Below, in pieces: positions 30,075-47,935 of a stretch of DNA of 64,000 nt; within the stretch, counting starts at the first letter, position 1, and the number at the start of each line of letters is the position of its first letter. A program made the position numbers and the translations under genes. Source of the DNA: a phage; NCBI GenBank assembly GCA_020241125.1, contig GCA_020241125.1_4708.1. One strand, 5' to 3'. The notes beneath the pieces are model-generated. The model searched no databases. It was not told the origin of the DNA and worked only from the letters and a program-made list of their open reading frames with translations.

Positions 30075-32243
30075 TTAGCTTTCACAGTCATCTGCGTCGA
30101 TGATTTGTCCGCCAGCAACGTTCAGTTGATGATACAGAATCCTCAACGCACGGTTACCGCCAATGGGATACTTCTCGAAGTTGGTCGCAATAGGAATCGC
30201 TGATGGCTTATCGGTCGCATAGATACTCTCAGTGATGCTATCCACCTGTTTTGGATTGTTCGCATAGTCCATAAAGACGCTCGCGAACCATCCGCCAGCA
30301 AAGGCGGTAACTTCACGATGTTCAGATTCACCGCAGTAACGAGTCGGTTGCTCTTTACCAGGAGAACTGTATTTATCGCTATTACTGAGTTTCGACGGTA
30401 ATCCATGCGCTTGCAGTTTAGGGATGCCCACCGCTGACCAGTCGTTCGCCGTCTTCTCCAACATCATGATGTACGTGTCACCGATCGCAATATCGTTCTT
30501 GGTTGTCCGCCATTGCCCAGAACGTCCACGATACCGTACAGGACCTTTCTTCAACGGGAACTCACGAATCAGATTCTCCATACGTTCTGAACCTGCTGCG
30601 ATACTGTCCGTCGGGATATAAACTTCCGTACCATGGCGTTGTACGTACCGTAAATGATCCCATTTATCCTCATCCGTGATACAGTATTTTTCAACAACCT
30701 GTTCCACGAATTCAGGACTGACGATATAGTAGTAGCGCATCAGTGTGTTCCAAGCGGTCTCCAGATCGCCTGCATCCATCACCGGTTTCAGTTCACGCAT
30801 GATCTGATCACCAACACCGTTGATGTACGGTGCGTTAACACGACTTAAACTCATCCTTTTGATTACCGTACTATCGTCGAACATGAAGTCCGCAACGTTA
30901 CCCCATTGGTCGACCGGCATTTCATCGTCTTCCATGATGTCGGTTACGACGAATTTATCACCCGCCATACCGGTGAATTTAAACCCGATACCTGGAACAA
31001 CGTCGTACGTGTATGTGATGGTCACACGCCAATCATCGAGATTCTCTTTACGGTAATCGCGGGTCGGTAACACATGACGTAGCTGTCCGTTAGGATTGCG
31101 GATATCAATACCGTGTTCAGCATCAGCCAGGTTCAACCACCACATCACCGTTTGATGATGACGTATCGGCGTACCAACGCGTTCACGTTCGTACTTACGA
31201 ACAGCATCCTGAATTCGGGTGTAAAGCAAACCAATCGCGTTCTCGTATTTCAGGAATTGACGATACGGAGGACGCATCTTCTCTTCCATCATAATCGCAC
31301 GCTCGCGGGCTTGACGTCCAGAACGACGATGTCGGTCGCTGACAACATCGATATCCGTTACACGCGCATTCGGTTCCGCGTAAGTGAGATCATCGTAAAC
31401 ATAATCCACACGCTGAAGGTTACACGTCATCATGTCAACAACGCTGAGGATAGGATCGATTTCGCGTGTTGCTGCAAGTAACCCATCCTTACGAATACGC
31501 TCACCGTTCTCGGGTATTGCTTGATATACCTCATCATCACCGTAGAGATTGATTGGGTATCGTGATTTACCTGATGTGATCGTCCGCTTCTCAATGCCGG
31601 TACTGGTGAAATGCTTCAATACACCACGACGGGCAACACCACCATCCTCGATACACTGATAGAAGCTACCGAAACACACTTTGCAATCGCGACCGTAACC
31701 CCACTCGCGCGTTTCTTGATTGATCGCTGGACTTTCCATCAAACGAGAATATCGCGGTACGATCTGGCCTCGACGAAGGGAATGGAACAAGTTGGTTGGT
31801 CGAAAACGGAAACCGTACTGCTGATGCATGATGTGATGCTCGGGCACTTCAAGCAAGCGTAGCTCGTGACGGTTACCATCCTCTTGGTTTTCATACAGCA
31901 CGTAATGCATCGTGTTTGTTTTGATGCTGTTTGCTGTATGCCCAGGTTGGAAACGTGGGATGATATCTATGATGCGAGATTCAACTGGAAACTCTACTGA
32001 CCAAGTGTTCTGTCCGTACTGGTATTCAATCCCCGTCGTTAGTCGGGACGGTTTCGCATCTTTGATAACCAACGCTTGGCTAAGATGTCCACCAAACATC
32101 GCAGCGCGCTGTGCTGAGTTATAATGCAATAGCCCGTTAAGTCCAGTCCCTACGCCAGTATACTCCTGTTTAATGGGAATGATTTTACCTTCAGCGATTG
32201 CCTGCTTCACAGATTCATAAAGAGGTTTTTCTTTATAATGCAT
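30075..32243 (-). CDS. multisubunit RNA polymerase beta-like subunit, C-terminal module (~722 aa)
   Basis: Ordered matches to bacterial beta: NSAQRAAMFGG (cf NMQRQAVP), YGQNTWSVEF (cf GQNMRVAFMPW), MAGDKFVVTDIMEDDEMPV (cf GDKMAGRHGNKG...EDMPY), GESEHREVTAFAGG (cf GEMEVWALEAYGA). Start moved to internal ATG (MHYKEKP) with AGGAAG RBS. Confidence 0.6.
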   Translation of the reverse strand: MHYKEKPLYESVKQAIAEGKIIPIKQEYTGVGTGLNGLLHYNSAQRAAMFGGHLSQALVIKDAKPSRLTTGIEYQYGQNTWSVEFPVESRIIDIIPRFQPGHTANSIKTNTMHYVLYENQEDGNRHELRLLEVPEHHIMHQQYGFRFRPTNLFHSLRRGQIVPRYSRLMESPAINQETREWGYGRDCKVCFGSFYQCIEDGGVARRGVLKHFTSTGIEKRTITSGKSRYPINLYGDDEVYQAIPENGERIRKDGLLAATREIDPILSVVDMMTCNLQRVDYVYDDLTYAEPNARVTDIDVVSDRHRRSGRQARERAIMMEEKMRPPYRQFLKYENAIGLLYTRIQDAVRKYERERVGTPIRHHQTVMWWLNLADAEHGIDIRNPNGQLRHVLPTRDYRKENLDDWRVTITYTYDVVPGIGFKFTGMAGDKFVVTDIMEDDEMPVDQWGNVADFMFDDSTVIKRMSLSRVNAPYINGVGDQIMRELKPVMDAGDLETAWNTLMRYYYIVSPEFVEQVVEKYCITDEDKWDHLRYVQRHGTEVYIPTDSIAAGSERMENLIREFPLKKGPVRYRGRSGQWRTTKNDIAIGDTYIMMLEKTANDWSAVGIPKLQAHGLPSKLSNSDKYSSPGKEQPTRYCGESEHREVTAFAGGWFASVFMDYANNPKQVDSITESIYATDKPSAIPIATNFEKYPIGGNRALRILYHQLNVAGGQIIDADDCES

Positions 32244-32274
32244 AGGACTTCCTATTATCGAATTGAGGTACGTC

Positions 32275-32628
32275 ATGTCTAACACGCCCCTGAACGACTT
32301 TCTTAAGACAAACCCCGATGACCTCATCCACGATCTTGATTTCAGGAACGTTGTTGAGATGCATCTGGAATATTTCAAAAATGCCGGACTGGTCTCTACG
32401 ATAGACATACCACCCGAACGCGCCTACGAATTCGATGGTAACTTTTATGGATTGTGTCGTGTTCTGCTTGGCGAGGGCAGTGAACCAATGCACTGGATAA
32501 CCATGAGACTCAATGGTTATCGTGACCCTACGGAATACACCGCCGATGTTCTAACCATGAAGATTGTCGATACAAGCGCAATCAACACATTAAAACAACA
32601 GTACCGCACAATCCACTACAGCGCTTAA
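32275..32628 (+). CDS. hypothetical protein (117 aa)
   Basis: Plus-strand ORF with GAGGT RBS and a terminator right after its stop. Confidence 0.45.
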   Translation: MSNTPLNDFLKTNPDDLIHDLDFRNVVEMHLEYFKNAGLVSTIDIPPERAYEFDGNFYGLCRVLLGEGSEPMHWITMRLNGYRDPTEYTADVLTMKIVDTSAINTLKQQYRTIHYSA

Positions 32629-32633
32629 GATAA

Positions 32634-32662
32634 CCCTCCCACAGCGTAAAGCGTAGGGAGGG
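32634..32662. terminator. hairpin CCCTCCC...GGGAGGG between convergent genes
   Basis: Lies between stops of 32275..32628 (+) and 32694..33974 (-). Confidence 0.5.
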
Positions 32663-32693: not shown

Positions 32694-33974
32694 TCAGAAA
32701 CGATTTACAGTACGTCCTGTCCACGCGCTCAGGATGTTGTTACGTTCCATCTCAGCACGACGACGTAAACCGTTTGGCGACTGCGGTGCTGGCGGCATCC
32801 CCCATCCAGCAGGTTGCATGCCCATGCCTGGCCAAGCAGCATTATTGAACATCGTACCGTTACGTTCCGCAACACGGTTCATCAACGCATCAAACGTGCT
32901 ATTACCTGCCGGTTGGTTACCACCACTTTCCCACTGATTAGGTTGGACAGGTGCGGTTTTACCTAACAGGTTATCGATCACACTGCCTGTTGAAGCAGGA
33001 CGCGGTTGCATACCTTCATGTGCAGCTGCTGATGGATTTGGCTTAACCGTCGGCTGCGGACGACTGTTCAGCGTTACACCCATGTTGTATTTCGCTGGCG
33101 GAATCTGACCACGATGTTGATTGATCGGTTCAAAATCCTCAACCCAAGTAACATCACAGTAGCCGTTCTCTTTACCGTCGTACTTATCACCAAACAGTTT
33201 GATGAGATTGTTCAGCGGTTCCATCAGCTTAGCGAAGCTGTGGATAAGACAATCGAAATACGGAGCATGAGGATCGCTTGACCCAGCGTTGTACGTTTCA
33301 CTTACCTCACCCGCGTGCGGGATAACGTACTCAACCAGGTTTCTCAGCATGTTAAGATCTTTCTTGGAAATCTCAACACCACACCAATACGTTTTCTTAT
33401 CTTTCGTGCTGATATGTTCTTCTTCCATGAACGGGAAAGTAACGACCGCAACGCGGGTCATCTTCTTACCCATGTAGGTTGCGCCGGTACGACGAAGATA
33501 AATTTTGGACAGCGTATACGGTGTGTCGCGTTTCAGCCAAACGGTGACCAGTTTACCCAGGGTCGTTAATGTTTTATCGCTGGCGTCCGCAAGGATGTTG
33601 AAGAACTCTTTTTGCTTCGGTCCGAAACGTTTTGCTTCTTTAGGATTGATTGCGGTTTCAACCATCCAAATCAGCATGGAGCATAGCGTGGCGTTAAAAC
33701 GAACAACCATCGCACGACGCAGGAACTGAAGTACTTCCGATTCGCCGTTCATCACGTCTTCACTTAGCGGATGGAACAGCACACGTTCAGCCAGCTGATT
33801 TCCGGTACGAACTTCAGAAACCGGCATCAGCAACGGCATGCTTTCCACGGTAGCGGCAACTGCAACAACTTTACCATCCCCATCCGTAAAACGATATTCT
33901 AATTCGTGGGCGTCATTCTCAAAATAGTTAACGCTCTGTAGTGCTTTGCGATAAGCTTCGATAAGCTTCGACAT
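32694..33974 (-). CDS. hypothetical protein (426 aa) with Gly/Pro/Gln/Met-rich low-complexity C-terminal tail
   Basis: C-terminal ~110 aa: GMQPRPASTG...GMGMQPAGWGMPPAPQSPNG. Confidence 0.55.
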   Translation of the reverse strand: MSKLIEAYRKALQSVNYFENDAHELEYRFTDGDGKVVAVAATVESMPLLMPVSEVRTGNQLAERVLFHPLSEDVMNGESEVLQFLRRAMVVRFNATLCSMLIWMVETAINPKEAKRFGPKQKEFFNILADASDKTLTTLGKLVTVWLKRDTPYTLSKIYLRRTGATYMGKKMTRVAVVTFPFMEEEHISTKDKKTYWCGVEISKKDLNMLRNLVEYVIPHAGEVSETYNAGSSDPHAPYFDCLIHSFAKLMEPLNNLIKLFGDKYDGKENGYCDVTWVEDFEPINQHRGQIPPAKYNMGVTLNSRPQPTVKPNPSAAAHEGMQPRPASTGSVIDNLLGKTAPVQPNQWESGGNQPAGNSTFDALMNRVAERNGTMFNNAAWPGMGMQPAGWGMPPAPQSPNGLRRRAEMERNNILSAWTGRTVNRF

Positions 33975-34029
33975 ATTGTATTTCCTTTTCTTTACGTCAA
34001 CGGTCCCCCTACAACAGGGGACCTATGGA

Positions 34030-35616
34030 TTAGAAGTTGCCTTTGGTAGTTACCGCATCCACCAGGTTAAACAAATCAACGCTCAGCTTATACACCTCCT
34101 GCTGGCTACGGTTGAGCAGCGGGCTGTATGCGGATGGGTTGATGTTCGGCATGGTGTACGGAATCGGTGCAGAGCCGTCAACGCTGATCTTGAACTGGCT
34201 GTCCAGGAACAGGTTAATCGCGCCGCTCACCATAACCGCATTCGGGTTGTTACCCAACATGGAGGGTAGGATATTGGTAATCATGTCAGAACGCATTTGT
34301 TCAGCAGCACGGTTACAATCGTATCCTTTAATGAACGGTACAGCGTCGGTAACCGCAACCGCCCACTGACCAGGCATGATACCGAGTTCTGGGTGACCAT
34401 GGTTGTCAGCAATGAAACGGAACGACTCCAACATGCGATACGTCATCGCAGCAGGCATCATTGCAGCAAGCGATGAGCAATACAGCGTTGGATAATCGAT
34501 CACGTCCCAGCTCTGGCTGTCGGTCGGCATCCAACCAAACTCGGTGGTTGCTGATGTACCACGACGAGCTTCCACATACGGGAATAACGTTAAGACGTCA
34601 CGGATATGTTCACCGAACATCCGTTTCATGTCAGCCCAACTCAGGCTACCGCTGAAAGCGAACCCTTCATCACGCATAATCGCACCGAATACCGGATGTG
34701 CAACCAGCGGTTCTTCACGAACAGCTTGAGCGGCTTCTACGTAAATATCCTCGTTCTCTGCGCTACCTGGATGAGACCCGCTTTCGTACGTCTGACGAAT
34801 AGCGCCAACATTATCGAAGGCTTTTCTCAGATAGATGGTTGGGATGTTCGTATCAGCACTAGCGGGTTTGATTTTCTCTGTTGCGAAACACATTGCTGCT
34901 TCCACACCACGGAAAACCGGTTCCGGTTGCGGTGGGTAGGATGTACGATGAACCACATCAGCGTAGGCTGGATCGAACTGTTGCATCACGTTCTGCATGG
35001 CTGGGTCCATGAACTGGTTATCAAAACCACCATTACCTACCCAACGTGCTGTTGATGCATAGGTCAGCGTATCCTGAACACGAGTACTGAACTGAACATC
35101 ACGATTAACGGGGTCGTATGCGCCGGTCAACAGGTTCGTTGCGTCCATCGGGGTTGCACGAACAATTTGCTTACCGAACATGTCCGTTGTGGTTGTTTCG
35201 GTTACCTGGATTACGTTCGTGAAGAAGAACACCAGTTCGTTCGGCAGATCGATAGCGCGCGTTGTAAACGCATCGAGGCTTACAGAATGGTCGGTGTATC
35301 CAGAAATGTAATGGACACGCTTGGTTCCTGGTGCGAGGGCCAAGGATTCTTCTACCGCCATCATGAAATGGAAACGACGTGTGCCCCAACCATTCGCAAT
35401 CTCCGAAACCCCCTCAGGTTCTGCAGACTGCTGCAACAAACCGGTTGCAAGCTTATTGATTGCTGATGGTGTTGTTGCCGTACCGAACCGCGTCGTGTTA
35501 ATGAAGTCTTCGATGCTACGCATGCTATCTGCGTGGAATCGTAGTGGACGACGTTGTACGTTGTTATACGGTGCGGTTTCAACCATCAGTATTTCACGAA
35601 CATTCATCGGGATCAT
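34030..35616 (-). CDS. hypothetical protein (528 aa)
   Basis: Long ORF; 2-nt gap to upstream gene suggests co-transcription. Confidence 0.55.
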   Translation of the reverse strand: MIPMNVREILMVETAPYNNVQRRPLRFHADSMRSIEDFINTTRFGTATTPSAINKLATGLLQQSAEPEGVSEIANGWGTRRFHFMMAVEESLALAPGTKRVHYISGYTDHSVSLDAFTTRAIDLPNELVFFFTNVIQVTETTTTDMFGKQIVRATPMDATNLLTGAYDPVNRDVQFSTRVQDTLTYASTARWVGNGGFDNQFMDPAMQNVMQQFDPAYADVVHRTSYPPQPEPVFRGVEAAMCFATEKIKPASADTNIPTIYLRKAFDNVGAIRQTYESGSHPGSAENEDIYVEAAQAVREEPLVAHPVFGAIMRDEGFAFSGSLSWADMKRMFGEHIRDVLTLFPYVEARRGTSATTEFGWMPTDSQSWDVIDYPTLYCSSLAAMMPAAMTYRMLESFRFIADNHGHPELGIMPGQWAVAVTDAVPFIKGYDCNRAAEQMRSDMITNILPSMLGNNPNAVMVSGAINLFLDSQFKISVDGSAPIPYTMPNINPSAYSPLLNRSQQEVYKLSVDLFNLVDAVTTKGNF

Positions 35617-35617
35617 T

Positions 35618-37204
35618 TTATTTTTTTCCTCTTAAATTTACTACGTGTTCATTTAATCGAACAACTAATTGCACAAGCTGCTGACGGATATCTGCTGGAC
35701 AAAGCATCAATCCTTTACGGTCAGCTGGGACTTTCTCAAGGATTTCCGGGCCTGCTGCTGAAACATCCCAGTCCCATTCACAAAACGCATCGGCCACCAT
35801 GTTAATACCGACAACCGGTAAAGTTGTACGTTCATCTTCATACATGGCGTGTGGATACAATTTATTGACAGTAATGATCTCCTGTGGTTTTAATTGGTGG
35901 ATAATCTGATAAACATCGTCGCGTTTGACCTGGATACCTACGGTCAGCGCGGCCAGTTGAGGAAAACCCCAATGGTCTAACAAACAAGCTGCGATCGCTA
36001 ACGCTTTTGCCTGATGCACGGCTTCAATCGGTGCCAGACTTCTCGCCGGAAGATGGCTATCAAGCAACCATTGCGCCAGTGCTCGGCATCCGCGGTTAAT
36101 TGGTTTTAACTCAACGGTGTCATCGTGTTTAGCGTACGTGTATCCGTCGTAACGTTTTGCGATACGCGCATACATGTCTTCAACTTTACCGTAAGGTGCC
36201 GTTTCGTCGACGTCGTGCAACACACGTTCCATCTGGGTAAGATACGCAATGTCGAGAATGAGTACACGTGGTGAACGTTTATCTTTCACCATCAACGCAT
36301 CAATCACGCCTTGACTGTCTTCATCTTGCGCATTCCCTCGCGGCGTTTTCTCGCGAATCGGTCCGCTGAAACGTCGTTCCGTACAAAGGTTATTCACATA
36401 GCTGAAGATCAGTGTTACTAGATGCGTACAACTCACTAACACCCCATCTTTAACGACAGGCTGTACAGCTTGGTCCAAGTCGCGTACGGCGAGACGGCGG
36501 ACGATGGCTTGTGAACGCAACCAGCCGGGCACTTTCTCCGTCGACATGTAATCCACGGTCATCGACAGCGTGATCTTTTTATCACCCGTCTGTGCGCGGA
36601 TATAGTCTTCCAGTCGGTCGTAAGCGGCGATATCATGAATGCGTGTTTTATACATCAACGACATAGCCACTTCTTCTTTACGAACCGTTCCGTACGTTTT
36701 CCCTGCGTCAATCAGAAACTCTGCCCAAATCGGCACCATCAGACGGACGTAGATCGCTAACGCCGTTAACTCAACGTAATCATTTCGTAAATAGGTTTTC
36801 TCAGGTATGTCATCCTCACCTAATGTTGTTTTCATGTCCGGTGGTAATTTTACCCAACCTGGGGTATTACACAATGCCAGAATCTCTTCGTACACAACCG
36901 GTTTGTAAATTTCACCAACAGCGCGACTCAACTCCTCCATTTGTTGTTGTGGAGCAATGTAGTTATCCATCGCTTCACGTGCTTTAACGAACCCTTCGAA
37001 GATGTCGTCAATTCGACGTGGGTTCTTTTGTTCTATCCAGGCGAGATACTTGTTAATCTCCCGCATCTGATTGCTAGCCATATCCCCATCAATCTTGATG
37101 TAACCCTGACCTGAAAATTCCACAGTACGTCCATCACGGTGTTTGATGAGATAGTGATCCAGCTTTTCTTTTCCTTGCGTCGTAATGACGGGCACTATGT
37201 GCAT
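35618..37204 (-). CDS. hypothetical protein (~528 aa; start at internal ATG with AAGAGG RBS)
   Basis: Track ORF extends to 37339, but the promoter-like motif and RBS support the ATG at 37204 (MHIVPVITTQ). Confidence 0.55.
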   Translation of the reverse strand: MHIVPVITTQGKEKLDHYLIKHRDGRTVEFSGQGYIKIDGDMASNQMREINKYLAWIEQKNPRRIDDIFEGFVKAREAMDNYIAPQQQMEELSRAVGEIYKPVVYEEILALCNTPGWVKLPPDMKTTLGEDDIPEKTYLRNDYVELTALAIYVRLMVPIWAEFLIDAGKTYGTVRKEEVAMSLMYKTRIHDIAAYDRLEDYIRAQTGDKKITLSMTVDYMSTEKVPGWLRSQAIVRRLAVRDLDQAVQPVVKDGVLVSCTHLVTLIFSYVNNLCTERRFSGPIREKTPRGNAQDEDSQGVIDALMVKDKRSPRVLILDIAYLTQMERVLHDVDETAPYGKVEDMYARIAKRYDGYTYAKHDDTVELKPINRGCRALAQWLLDSHLPARSLAPIEAVHQAKALAIAACLLDHWGFPQLAALTVGIQVKRDDVYQIIHQLKPQEIITVNKLYPHAMYEDERTTLPVVGINMVADAFCEWDWDVSAAGPEILEKVPADRKGLMLCPADIRQQLVQLVVRLNEHVVNLRGKK

Positions 37205-37408: not shown

Positions 37409-38200
37409 TTAGAACGCTAAGCCATCAAAGGCTACGGACGGATCATCGTCGTCATTTGCGCTTGGCGCATCCCAACGGGTATCAGGGGCCGCTGAAGCCG
37501 AACTTGATGCGTTAGAGTTACCGTTGTACTGGCCGTTACCAGCATTACGGTTACCGCCGCCGTTGTTATTGTTACGGTTATAGCTATTGTTGCCACCATT
37601 ACTTACGCTACGGCTTTCACCGTCGAAATTGGTTGCGAGGATGCTCGGCAACACTGCGCGATGAATACGTACAAATTCCAACGCACAAAGCGGAGAAACA
37701 ACCCCGATCTGTAAAGGTTGCCCAGACTCATCAACCAGAGCGTGGAAACGCGGTGGCTTGAATACGAATTGGATGTTCGGTTTTTGGTACGCGGTTACAG
37801 CGATATATACCGAACCATCATCGTTCTTACCAACCCATGTTGTACTTTCGGTAATCTGTTTCTTCTTACCTGGATTATTGCGATCGTCGATAACCTTTTC
37901 GTTCTTCATCGCAAAACGTTGGCCTGGCTTACCCTTAGCAACCTGCTCGAGGATCGCAAGCAGGTTATAGAACGCGTATGAACTCATGCGTGCCCAAATG
38001 CTTTCGGCGCGACCCTGCTGGTCTTTACGACCTGTATAAACCGTGATGCGCGGTTGATTCTTAGCAACGCTAATTTTCAATGAGGGGATTGAATTACCGC
38101 CCTCAACCTTTTCGTCCGCCCACAGTTTCCAGTTGTTGTCGTCATACGCTGTAGGAATAATGTTTCCTTGTGGTTTACTGCCCGAATTCCAATTGCTCAT
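37409..38200 (-). CDS. putative single-stranded DNA-binding protein (SSB-like architecture, 263 aa)
   Basis: Folded N-terminal ~200 aa, Gly/Asn-rich linker (SNGGNNSYNRNNNNGGGNRNAGNGQYNGNSN), acidic tip ANDDDDPSVAFDGLAF, as in bacterial SSB (DDDIPF). Confidence 0.4.
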   Translation of the reverse strand: MSNWNSGSKPQGNIIPTAYDDNNWKLWADEKVEGGNSIPSLKISVAKNQPRITVYTGRKDQQGRAESIWARMSSYAFYNLLAILEQVAKGKPGQRFAMKNEKVIDDRNNPGKKKQITESTTWVGKNDDGSVYIAVTAYQKPNIQFVFKPPRFHALVDESGQPLQIGVVSPLCALEFVRIHRAVLPSILATNFDGESRSVSNGGNNSYNRNNNNGGGNRNAGNGQYNGNSNASSSASAAPDTRWDAPSANDDDDPSVAFDGLAF

Positions 38201-46039: not shown

Positions 46040-47935
46040 TTAGAACAGGTTGAATGCCCCACCCATGTTGTTAACGCCAACATTCGGACGATCGCTACGT
46101 GCGTAGATGTTACCGGAGATGTTACCCAGACCACGAGCACGTGCTGCCATGTTACCACGAACAGCGGTACCTGCCAGATGCTGGATGTTCTCAGGACGGA
46201 TGGTGAAGCCAGCATCAGCAGCGGCCTCGATCAGCGCCTGCAGTGCTAACGGATCGAAGTCGTAACGCATTGCCCAGCCGGTTTGTTCCCAGCTACCAGA
46301 CAGAACACGATCAATGATTTCGTGACGAGCGACAACACGCTGAGACATCGTCATATCGGTACGGTCGAAGCTGTCTTCCCAAGCTTCTACGGTATCCGGG
46401 TTAGTGATGTTCATCATGTACAGATCGTCCATATCACGAATATCGTGACGGTGACCATCCTGGTGGTTATAATGACCCAGCGGGATACGGTTACCGGTAG
46501 CGTAGACCAGTGGTGCGCCGTACTGATATTTCTTGCTGAAGCAACCCAGGGTAGTATCATCGAAGGCACGGAAGAGTGCTTTGTAACCTTCGGAGATTTC
46601 CCGGACTTCACCTTCAACTTTGCCCGTATAGATCTTCTCAGCCGCCGGGATCATACGCAGCAGCCAGCTGTATTCGCCTTCTTCCGGTACGTCGATAGAA
46701 ATCAGCAGAGACGGATACAGTACCTGTTGCAGGAACTTGTAAATCTGCTCGTTGGTTTGAGTAGACAGATCCAGCGGTGCGGTAACTTCCGGATCCAGTA
46801 CCATCGCCAGAGCACCCGGGTTATGCGGACCAATACCACGAGCAGCGTTGCTGATTAAAGACTGTGCCCACGCCATACCGCTGTTCAGCGTAGCGATGGT
46901 GCCAATCAGACCCAACACGAAAGTGTTCGGCGTGAACGCATCCAGCTCCAGCGGGTAAGCGCTGGTCATCACGTAACGCGGTTGGTATTGTACAGTCGGC
47001 GGTACCGGATAACCGTTAACCAGAACAGGGCCTTGGTTGAAGGTCGGGTTCTGCGGGCTGTAGGTCAGGTCAATGTAACCGGTGGTTGCGACCAGACGCT
47101 GCTGACTATCGTAATCGCTCATCGCTTGACGGATGCGGTTAGAGATAGTTACAGTGATGTCAGAACGCACAGGGTTACCAACAATATCGCTGTCCTGCAT
47201 ACCGCTGGTGTTGTACTGAACGCTGCTGATTGGCTGATCGCTTGCCATCATGCCCAGGTTGAACTGCGGCAGACCCAGTTTATCGCCGAGACGGATTTCG
47301 ATCGCGGTTTGGATTGCGTTATCTGCAGCAGACAGCAGGGTGGTTGCCAGATGCGCAGATTCAGCGGTGATTTCATTGGTCACCACAGCCAGACCAGCGA
47401 TACGAGCAGTACCATTAGACTTACCACCGATAGCTGCATACATTGCCGCCATGACTTCGTTGATGAACGTACCGTTCAGGTTATCAACCCAGGTACGCGG
47501 CACCAGAATGTTACCATGCGGGCCTTGTTCTTCACGACGCGGCAGCGGAGCCAAACCGGCAACCAGTGGAAGCACATAACCGAAGAAGTGGTTATGGTCA
47601 CCAACTTTTGCACCGCTCATAACAACCAGGGTCGGATACGGTACACTGTATTGGTTAGGATCGACGGTCACCATGATGAAGTCGTCTTTGAATCCTTTAT
47701 CTTCCAGTTCTTTTTCCATCAGACGACGGAGATTCAGTACCTGCTCGGAGCCAGTATTACGGCTAATACGACGGCTCAGTGTACGGTTGATCGTACGCAT
47801 CGTATGAGTTACTTTAGGCTGGCCAGCAAAATCTGCAGCGGTTTCCAGCGCCTCATCAGCACGTTGTGCGGTGCGGGTTTCAGCTGCACGAATTTCTACA
47901 TTATCGTTACCGTTATTACGTACGTCTAAGCCCAT
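46040..47935 (-). CDS. chmA: candidate chimallin / phage-nucleus shell protein (631 aa); major capsid protein not excluded
   Basis: Large ORF with strongly optimal codon usage, AAGAGGAA RBS, promoter-like motif 70 nt upstream, directly upstream of the beta'-N gene (order as recalled for phiKZ gp54-gp55), ~8 kb from PhuZ. No motif confirmation possible by eye. Confidence 0.45.
   Translation of the reverse strand: MGLDVRNNGNDNVEIRAAETRTAQRADEALETAADFAGQPKVTHTMRTINRTLSRRISRNTGSEQVLNLRRLMEKELEDKGFKDDFIMVTVDPNQYSVPYPTLVVMSGAKVGDHNHFFGYVLPLVAGLAPLPRREEQGPHGNILVPRTWVDNLNGTFINEVMAAMYAAIGGKSNGTARIAGLAVVTNEITAESAHLATTLLSAADNAIQTAIEIRLGDKLGLPQFNLGMMASDQPISSVQYNTSGMQDSDIVGNPVRSDITVTISNRIRQAMSDYDSQQRLVATTGYIDLTYSPQNPTFNQGPVLVNGYPVPPTVQYQPRYVMTSAYPLELDAFTPNTFVLGLIGTIATLNSGMAWAQSLISNAARGIGPHNPGALAMVLDPEVTAPLDLSTQTNEQIYKFLQQVLYPSLLISIDVPEEGEYSWLLRMIPAAEKIYTGKVEGEVREISEGYKALFRAFDDTTLGCFSKKYQYGAPLVYATGNRIPLGHYNHQDGHRHDIRDMDDLYMMNITNPDTVEAWEDSFDRTDMTMSQRVVARHEIIDRVLSGSWEQTGWAMRYDFDPLALQALIEAAADAGFTIRPENIQHLAGTAVRGNMAARARGLGNISGNIYARSDRPNVGVNNMGGAFNLF

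Follow-up and report, generated by a model that had tools for sequence, protein, structure and literature searches.

What might a protein that joins a folded domain to a long, compositionally biased tail do beside the transcription and transport genes of a jumbo phage? The question is raised by gp173, a gene in a 64,000-nucleotide stretch of phage DNA (NCBI GenBank assembly GCA_020241125.1, contig GCA_020241125.1_4708.1), referred to below as the window. A preliminary description of this DNA, made from the sequence and a list of its open reading frames (ORFs), had placed an ORF at 32694-33974, and this exact position was confirmed. The coding sequence (32694..33974, minus strand) starts with ATG and specifies 426 aa plus a stop codon, and a ribosome-binding site, AAGGA, can be read directly from the sequence at 33983..33987 on the same strand, 8 nt upstream of the ATG. 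The protein is the ortholog of phiKZ gp70 and PhiPA3 gp64. On identity it is already explained, as a near-identical new member of a family named in print as shell-associated. Apparently new, as far as we found, are the tail as a conserved module and a hint that its chemistry tracks that of the tails of chimallin, the main protein of the nuclear shell, and of the importer PicA.

Identity of gp173 and published knowledge on its family

The gp173 protein is 99.8% identical (tblastn) to a hypothetical protein of Escherichia phage Goslar, the RefSeq name of which is HOV27_gp173 / YP_009820858.1. At the nucleotide level, the gene differs from the Goslar reference (NC_048170, 156216-157496) at 34 of 1,281 nt (97.3% identity). 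By sequence, the window phage is a Goslar-like jumbo phage of E. coli; given these differences, it is a close relative and a different isolate from the reference. Against phiKZ gp70, which has an M/Q/P-rich tail, BLASTP gave E = 4e-24 with ~26% identity. PHROG 3520 matched residues 1-386 (E = 1.5e-63), and tblastn found the family in 163 phage records, each with at least 80% of the domain covered. The sequence assignment of gp173 as the Goslar-type member of the phiKZ gp70 / PhiPA3 gp64 family is solid, and the family is a core non-virion protein of the nucleus-forming jumbo phages (Chimalliviridae).

PhiPA3 gp64 was found by proximity labelling, in which it was biotinylated, and was imaged on the nuclear shell (Enustun et al., 2023, PMC10643120). 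Pull-downs with GFP-ChmB recovered it together with gp63/PicA; it was expressed early and was absent from virions, no function was assigned to it, and disorder was not discussed (PMC10643120). Goslar YP_009820858.1 and phiKZ NP_803636 were listed there as gp64 homologs, while ChmB has no recognisable homolog in Goslar (PMC10643120). Imp1/PicA (phiKZ gp69) is a protein importer of the phage nucleus (10.1101/2024.03.27.586873). In a transposon study of phiKZ, the 1,302 bp of orf70 contained a single qualifying insertion site, where the genome as a whole averaged one per 42 bp, and orf68, orf69 and orf71 had none; the authors of the study caution about polar effects (PMC12676376). No functional study of Goslar gp173, PHIKZ070 or gp64 was found in the literature after 2024, nor was any paper on the Goslar protein itself or on the family's tail, and the main texts of a preprint on import of the non-virion RNA polymerase (nvRNAP), an antisense-oligomer screen, a review and the transposon study do not mention the protein.

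The C-terminal tail of the Goslar copy

The AlphaFold2 (AF2) model of gp173, built on a 148-sequence alignment, has predicted local distance difference test (pLDDT) values above 90 for residues 1-300 and mostly below 50 for residues 328-426. It thereby upholds the earlier reading of a folded region of ~300 aa followed by a disordered, biased tail. Values fall below 50 at residues 328-358, 373-396 and 398-426. By common practice, very low pLDDT serves well as a proxy for disorder, and isolated rises point to segments that become folded on binding. As modelled, residues ~310-426 are intrinsically disordered.

The compositional shift between the two parts is strong. The residues G/P/Q/M/N/S/T/A make up 72% of positions 301-405 and 39% of positions 1-300 (Fisher p = 5e-9), while charged residues fall from 25% in the domain to 12% in the tail segment and I/L/V/F/C from 27% to 11%. 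Of the window's 54 ORFs with 150 aa or more, gp173 has the most extreme 105-aa stretch for G/P/Q/M/N/S/T/A (0.74), followed by ChmA (chimallin) and the shell-associated protein ChmC, both at 0.62. The preliminary description had called the tail Gly/Pro/Gln/Met-rich and its last ~110 residues low complexity. The bias holds, but P, A, G and N are the commonest residues of the Goslar tail, in which Met on its own shows no significant excess (6% vs 4% in the domain, p = 0.59). The last 25 residues (GLRRRAEMERNNILSAWTGRTVNRF) also depart from that account, for they are not of low complexity and form a basic predicted helix with Phe at the end. Tail entropy is moderately low (3.05-3.65 bits per 25-aa segment), and the tail is compositionally biased, not repetitive.

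Along the tail, all on the minus strand, residues 301-357 (32904..33074) form a P/A/S/T/Q-rich disordered linker with a short SVIDNLLGK element, recognised from composition and entropy, over which pLDDT drops from 77 to ~40. Residues 358-372 (STFDALMNRVAERNG; 32859..32903) are the Goslar copy of the family tail motif described below. In the AF2 model they contain a predicted helix at 360-371, with pLDDT ~68 between flanks of ~40, which probably folds on binding. The following G/M/P/W-rich segment, residues 373-401 (TMFNNAAWPGMGMQPAGWGMPPAPQSPN; 32772..32858), has the lowest complexity of the tail (3.05-3.08 bits, 80-84% G/P/Q/M/N/S/T/A) and pLDDT below 50. Residues 402-426 (LRRRAEMERNNILSAW; 32697..32771) comprise the basic predicted helix (403-418, with low AF2 confidence) and the C-terminal ...VNRF; the closest homologs, P0002 and P0003, keep the RRR...AWTG segment. 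The tail of the Goslar copy contains no FG/GF dipeptide, one GW/WG and four GM/MG.

Comparison of the two Goslar-type strains bears on whether this sequence is constrained. Synonymous changes outnumber non-synonymous ones by 33 to 1 over the gene, and the sole residue change, S328A, lies in the tail, where the count is 5 to 1. By a rough estimate that takes three quarters or so of random changes to be non-synonymous, at most one such change in six has a probability of ~0.005, and this synonymous excess suggests that the tail is under purifying selection between the two strains. The cluster representative P0001 differs at a further tail residue (M386V).

The tail as a module of the family

A HMMER search with residues 1-310 gave 1,423 cluster representatives at E <= 1e-3, and tails were analysed in 152 full-length proteins, namely the best 150 of the 1,423 supplemented with the first homology-search hits and the window copy. 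All 152 have the domain followed by a tail, of 83-297 aa (median 159). Compared with the domains, the tails contain more Q (4.7x), P (3.3x), G (1.8x), W (1.8x), A (1.6x) and M (1.4x) and less K, L, I, D, E and C, and their median charged fraction is 0.096. Conservation of tail composition in homologs had been named in the preliminary description as a point on which its account could fail; the composition is kept family-wide. Aromatic content is 7.3%, with an interquartile range of 6.4-8.6%, and Gly-aromatic dipeptides occur 2.1-3.4x above the composition-based expectation throughout the family. The dominant sticky residue is Y in 57 tails, M in 51, F in 29 and W in 15.

Two further elements recur. 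One is a motif with the consensus (R/K)T..G[LV][DS][FW].[SD][VIL][MLV]R.NP.LA, a strict regular expression for which matched 68 of the 152 tails (2.5 expected from shuffles), and a hidden Markov model (HMM) of which scored at least 8 bits in 88 tails and in no shuffled tail. The other is the C-terminus itself. The last residue is I/L/V/F/W/Y/M in 118 of 152 proteins (78%, against a background of 23% of tail residues), and Ile is last in 51 although it accounts for just 2% of tail residues. The motif was found neither in ChmA, PicA, ChmC and gp68 of 15 phages (all <= 1.2 bits) nor in the 111 other ORFs of the window, and by these searches it is unique to the gp70-like family. Read from these sequences, the tail is a constant family module that combines a low-charge Q/P/G/A spacer, Gly-adjacent aromatic or Met residues, an amphipathic-helix motif and a hydrophobic end.

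The chemistry of the spacer varies between lineages. R/D/E-rich tails replace the Q/P chemistry in a few of them (Xoo-sp14, FBKp24, P0030, P0072 and P0136). The tail encoded by the metagenomic contig L019 has RFG repeats among charged spacers, that of SPN3US (L014) has Leu-Gly repeats, and that of Phabio (L005, 20001-21335) is GLFG-like (QGLFGAQPT...PTLFGNTNTSF...SLFGGPSP...GFTNNGFGN). The homolog of Pseudomonas phage Churi (OM718002.1) is annotated as 'Med15 subunit of mediator complex protein', which is almost certainly an artefact of low-complexity similarity to a Q-rich tail.

Co-variation with the tails of chimallin and PicA

In 15 phages, tail properties were compared within each phage and against permuted pairs. 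The composition of the gp70-like tail correlated with that of the last 40 aa of chimallin (mean r = 0.41 vs 0.01 +/- 0.09 permuted, p = 2e-4) and with that of the last 30 aa of PicA (r = 0.18, p = 0.01); with the gp68 C-terminus the correlation was not significant (r = 0.01). Within phages, the C-terminal pentapeptides of PicA and of the gp70-like protein also resemble each other, with a mean BLOSUM62 score of 1.2 vs -3.6 +/- 1.4 for permuted pairs (p ~9e-4). The PicA/gp70-like C-terminal pairs include DLGLV/GLGLV, DLGLL/GLGLI and EDLF/GDLF, KGNF/VNRF in Goslar and ESII/NSVI in a metagenomic contig. Since the C-termini are alike and gp63 and gp64 are both recovered with ChmB (PMC10643120), the comparison suggests that PicA and the gp70-like protein may both use their C-termini on a common site.

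By eye, the tails of chimallin, PicA and the gp70-like protein are all R/D-rich in Xoo-sp14 (L006), and the Leu-Gly repeats of SPN3US are common to all three proteins. The Phabio chimallin tail has GNGFQNTFGQQGPGSFY at its end, and the gp70-like tail of this phage resembles the GLFG repeats of nucleoporins.

The folded domain

Residues 1-300 (33075..33974, minus strand), modelled with the high pLDDT given above, form a family-specific alpha/beta folded domain. The 148-sequence alignment contains a conserved loop, FHPLSE..(R)GES, with F67, H68, P69, the invariant E72, E78 and S79, and R174, F180-P181, Y228, P238, N255 and W277 are conserved elsewhere in the domain. From this conservation pattern the loop looks like a candidate binding or catalytic site.

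Pfam has no family for gp173 or for 10 diverse homologs, and a sequence search of the PDB gave no match with gp173 alone or with the family profile. Foldseek of the domain against the PDB returned nothing with E < 0.69, and matches in BFVD were 13 uncharacterised proteins only, all from the family of gp173. By these searches, the folded domain is an orphan without detectable structural or sequence relatives outside its own family.

Gene neighbourhood

The preliminary description had set the gene between the RNAP beta gene and two 528-aa ORFs. The placement stands, with beta downstream and the two ORFs upstream, but the ORFs do not form a pair: they are unrelated in sequence (BLASTP E = 0.078), and their equal length is a coincidence. 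The nearer one, gp174 (34030..35616, minus strand), is PicA/Imp1, the ortholog of phiKZ gp69 (BLASTP E = 2e-14 over full length; synteny). gp173 itself was tried as a paralog of this neighbour and the relation was ruled out (hhalign probability 0.1%, E = 0.47, with the 148-sequence alignment against 17 PicA sequences). The next ORF, gp175 (35618..37204, minus strand), is the ortholog of phiKZ gp68, the fifth nvRNAP subunit (BLASTP E = 4e-34; PDB 7OGP chain B, PHIKZ068, E = 6e-28); its 528 aa are counted from the ATG at 37204, and the mechanical ORF of 573 aa starts at an upstream GTG.

Further upstream, gp176 (37409..38200, minus strand) is ChmC/Imp6, the ortholog of phiKZ gp67 (BLASTP E = 1e-19), a shell-associated protein with an RNA-binding Whirly fold and an N/G-rich disordered tail. 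Goslar gp176 was named ChmC in a study in which its disordered tail drove RNA condensates and was needed for phage titre (PMC11077065). The chimallin gene (ChmA; 46040..47935, minus strand; PDB 7SQT full length, E = 0) lies 12 kb from gp173.

Downstream, gp171 (30075..32243, minus strand) is nvRNAP beta, the counterpart of phiKZ gp71-73 (PHROG 3295, E = 2e-180; RefSeq). Its mechanical ORF (30075-32408, minus strand) has 777 aa and the RefSeq protein 722 aa (start at 32243). The first ~55 residues of the 777-aa ORF are probably not translated, because the RefSeq start and the PHROG match, which begins at residue 79, both lie later. Between gp173 and the beta gene lies gp172 (32275-32628, plus strand; 117 aa, PHROG 3455), a small reverse gene in an otherwise unidirectional block. 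The 65-nt gap between the convergent gp173 and gp172 contains an inverted repeat, CCCTCCC...GGGAGGG (32634..32662), which from its sequence may be a bidirectional terminator. In the 55-nt gap from the PicA/Imp1 stop to the gp173 start there is a hairpin, GGTCCCCT-gttgt-AGGGGGACC (34002..34023, minus strand), which has no T-run. A consensus promoter and terminator scan around gp173 found nothing above shuffled expectation; neither GC-rich hairpin was called, in the case of the CCCTCCC...GGGAGGG repeat because its loop is 15 nt long.

The order ChmC, gp68-like protein, PicA, gp70-like protein, small reverse gene, nvRNAP beta, beta' and helicase is the same in 15 of 15 cultured phages (Goslar, phiKZ and 13 more). 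Their hosts belong to Escherichia, Pseudomonas, Proteus, Erwinia, Xanthomonas, Klebsiella, Kosakonia, Burkholderia and Salmonella, and one phage came from a sea-squirt sample. Two long metagenomic contigs, L016 and L019, have the same order, and the short contig L018 shows only the PicA-like neighbour. A reverse gene of ~95-122 aa occupies the place of gp172 in all 15 cultured phages and in L016 and L019. The position of gp173 reflects this conserved block, which mixes shell, transport and nvRNAP genes, and is no evidence of polymerase membership.

The ChmC/Imp6 tails of the block (L002-L014, L019) end in an acidic and then hydrophobic tip, as in DFDDDIPF, DFADDLPF, AFDTDIPF, SEDLPF and FDNDVPW, with DDDDPSVAFDGLAF in Goslar. 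The tip resembles the C-terminal tip of bacterial SSB (DDDIPF), and by this analogy it might recruit host or phage proteins that bind the SSB tip. The S/D/E-rich end of ChmC has been described, without mention of SSB (PMC11077065).

Proposed role of gp173 and alternative explanations

Taken as a composite, the evidence somewhat favours a protein anchored on the shell, with a tail that serves next to the import machinery as a flexible and multivalent arm for docking and cohesion. The folded domain would anchor gp173 at the shell near the co-encoded import proteins PicA/Imp1 and ChmC/Imp6, and the tail would project from it as the flexible arm. The helix motif and the C-terminal residue could dock on one or more conserved phage partners, and the aromatic- and Met-studded segment could engage in weak cohesion, plausibly with the chimallin and PicA C-terminal tails, which are of similar composition. 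Contacts of these kinds would together help to organise transport or docking sites on the shell. In the preliminary description, a scaffold or condensate-forming role linked to transcription had been put forward. The low-charge, polar, aromatic- and Met-studded tail fits the scaffold or cohesive, condensate-like part of that proposal, and the neighbouring ChmC has a different disordered tail that drives RNA condensates (PMC11077065).

The link to transcription was not sustained. PhiPA3 gp64 localises to the nuclear shell and comes down with ChmB in pull-downs (PMC10643120), and descriptions of the nvRNAP omit gp70: the phiKZ enzyme is described as gp55, gp68, gp71-73, gp74 and gp123 (10.1101/2024.03.27.586873). 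The gp173 protein has neither a Pfam RNAP domain nor a PDB sequence match, whereas its neighbour gp175 matches PHIKZ068 (7OGP). gp173 is not a stable subunit of the nvRNAP, and a direct role in transcription is not supported. It is unlikely that gp173 is a transcription or mRNA-handling accessory inside the phage nucleus that binds nvRNAP or nascent RNA and uses the Q/P tail as an activation or hub domain.

Several observations weigh against the docking-arm proposal. phiKZ gp70 was grouped with nuclear and not with shell proteins, and on co-expression in E. coli it failed to co-purify with Imp1, while gp67 did so (10.1101/2024.03.27.586873). The depletion of transposon insertions in orf70 could be a polar effect on the essential downstream RNAP genes, and two antisense oligomers against PHIKZ070 carried no phenotype mark, whereas those against PicA and ChmC were marked (PMC12571901). 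Shell association, early expression and likely importance are taken from the literature on orthologs and not from the Goslar protein. The Goslar tail is short (126 aa, against the family median of 159) and lacks an FG dipeptide, and its copy of the motif is weak, at 8.0 bits in the tail and 5.7 bits in the whole protein. The composition of the gp70-like tail also correlates with that of the chimallin core (r = 0.33), and because this control is positive the composition signal is partly lineage-wide; the 15 phages are moreover non-independent, and the co-variation is suggestive only. Assembly of chimallin proceeds through docking of its flexible N- and C-terminal segments on adjacent protomers (PMC9365700), and for that reason the tails were compared with the last 60 aa of chimallin, with composition-matched shuffles as the null. 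Mimicry of the C-terminal docking segments was rejected at the sequence level (Smith-Waterman z from -1.0 to 2.2).

A more specific idea is that many shell-anchored tails together act as a selective phase like that of nucleoporins, with a cohesive meshwork at transport sites that would help to decide what passes the shell. Such a phase would aid selective protein or mRNA passage as a convergent, protein-shell version of the FG-repeat barrier, with sticky residues (F, Y, W, M, or R/D with FG) that co-evolve with the chimallin and PicA tails in each lineage. The disordered, low-charge tails with their steady aromatic content and enriched Gly-aromatic dipeptides speak for it, as do the GLFG-like tail of Phabio, the RFG repeats kept in a charged-tail lineage (L019), the position of the gene next to the importer PicA/Imp1 in every genome examined and the co-variation of tail composition with the chimallin and PicA tails. 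No description of the chimallin lattice, however, includes a wide pore for which such a plug would be needed; the family has no homology to nucleoporins, the sticky segment of the FG-free Goslar tail is short, and the failure of phiKZ gp70 to bind Imp1 in the pull-down counts against this idea too (10.1101/2024.03.27.586873). On balance we regard it as quite improbable.

At the other extreme, the tail could be a passive spacer or evolutionary filler, with all function in the folded domain. Its length and sequence vary widely, its chemistry is replaced by R/D/E-rich sequence in P0030, P0072, P0136, Xoo-sp14 and FBKp24, and some cultured phages have a weak motif or none. Yet a tail is present in every one of the 152 full-length representatives, the motif and the hydrophobic C-terminus far exceed shuffled expectation, aromatic content is tightly held, and the tail changes between the two Goslar-type strains are mostly synonymous. 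We consider a functionless tail very unlikely.

Comparison with known systems

PhiPA3 gp64 and phiKZ gp70 are like gp173 in sequence, in gene order and in the combination of a ~300-aa domain with a disordered tail. They differ in the tail, which in Goslar is shorter and has more P/A/G/N, whereas Met is strikingly abundant in the phiKZ and PhiPA3-like tails. Measurements of localisation, timing and partners come from the Pseudomonas phage proteins only. ChmC/Imp6 (Goslar gp176, PhiPA3 gp61), encoded three genes upstream, is likewise a shell-associated protein of the core block with a folded domain and a disordered tail. It has no sequence relation to gp173, however, and the Whirly RNA-binding fold and N/G-rich tail with an acidic end of ChmC contrast with the domain of gp173, which has no fold relative, and its Q/P/G/A-rich tail with aromatic residues, Met and a hydrophobic end.

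FG-nucleoporins, both of the GLFG type (Nup98/Nup100) and of the FxFG type with charged spacers, would be analogous to the family in having a disordered domain tethered at the boundary of a genome compartment. They share low-charge polar spacers and aromatic residues next to Gly, and Phabio has literal LFG/GFG repeats. They differ in that there is no homology, and the sticky residues of most family members are Tyr or Met and not Phe. Of the features that define FG-nucleoporins, the Goslar tail has the disordered domain and lacks multiple FG repeats. Bacterial FtsZ and SSB resemble gp173 in architecture only, with a globular domain, a variable low-complexity linker and short docking elements. 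This layout recruits partners to a polymer or surface. Their motifs differ from those of gp173, and nothing points to binding of host division or replication proteins by gp173.

Significance

For the passage of proteins and mRNA across the closed chimallin shell of nucleus-forming phages, importers (PicA/Imp1 and other Imp proteins) and the RNA-binding factor ChmC are known. The gp173 family is among the few conserved shell-associated proteins without a function, and its gene lies directly beside that of an importer. Should the tail prove inert, the search for a function narrows to the orphan folded domain and its H68/E72/E78/S79 loop. The tail module, for its part, offers the hypothesis of multivalent tail contacts at transport sites, which is testable with existing Goslar genetics.

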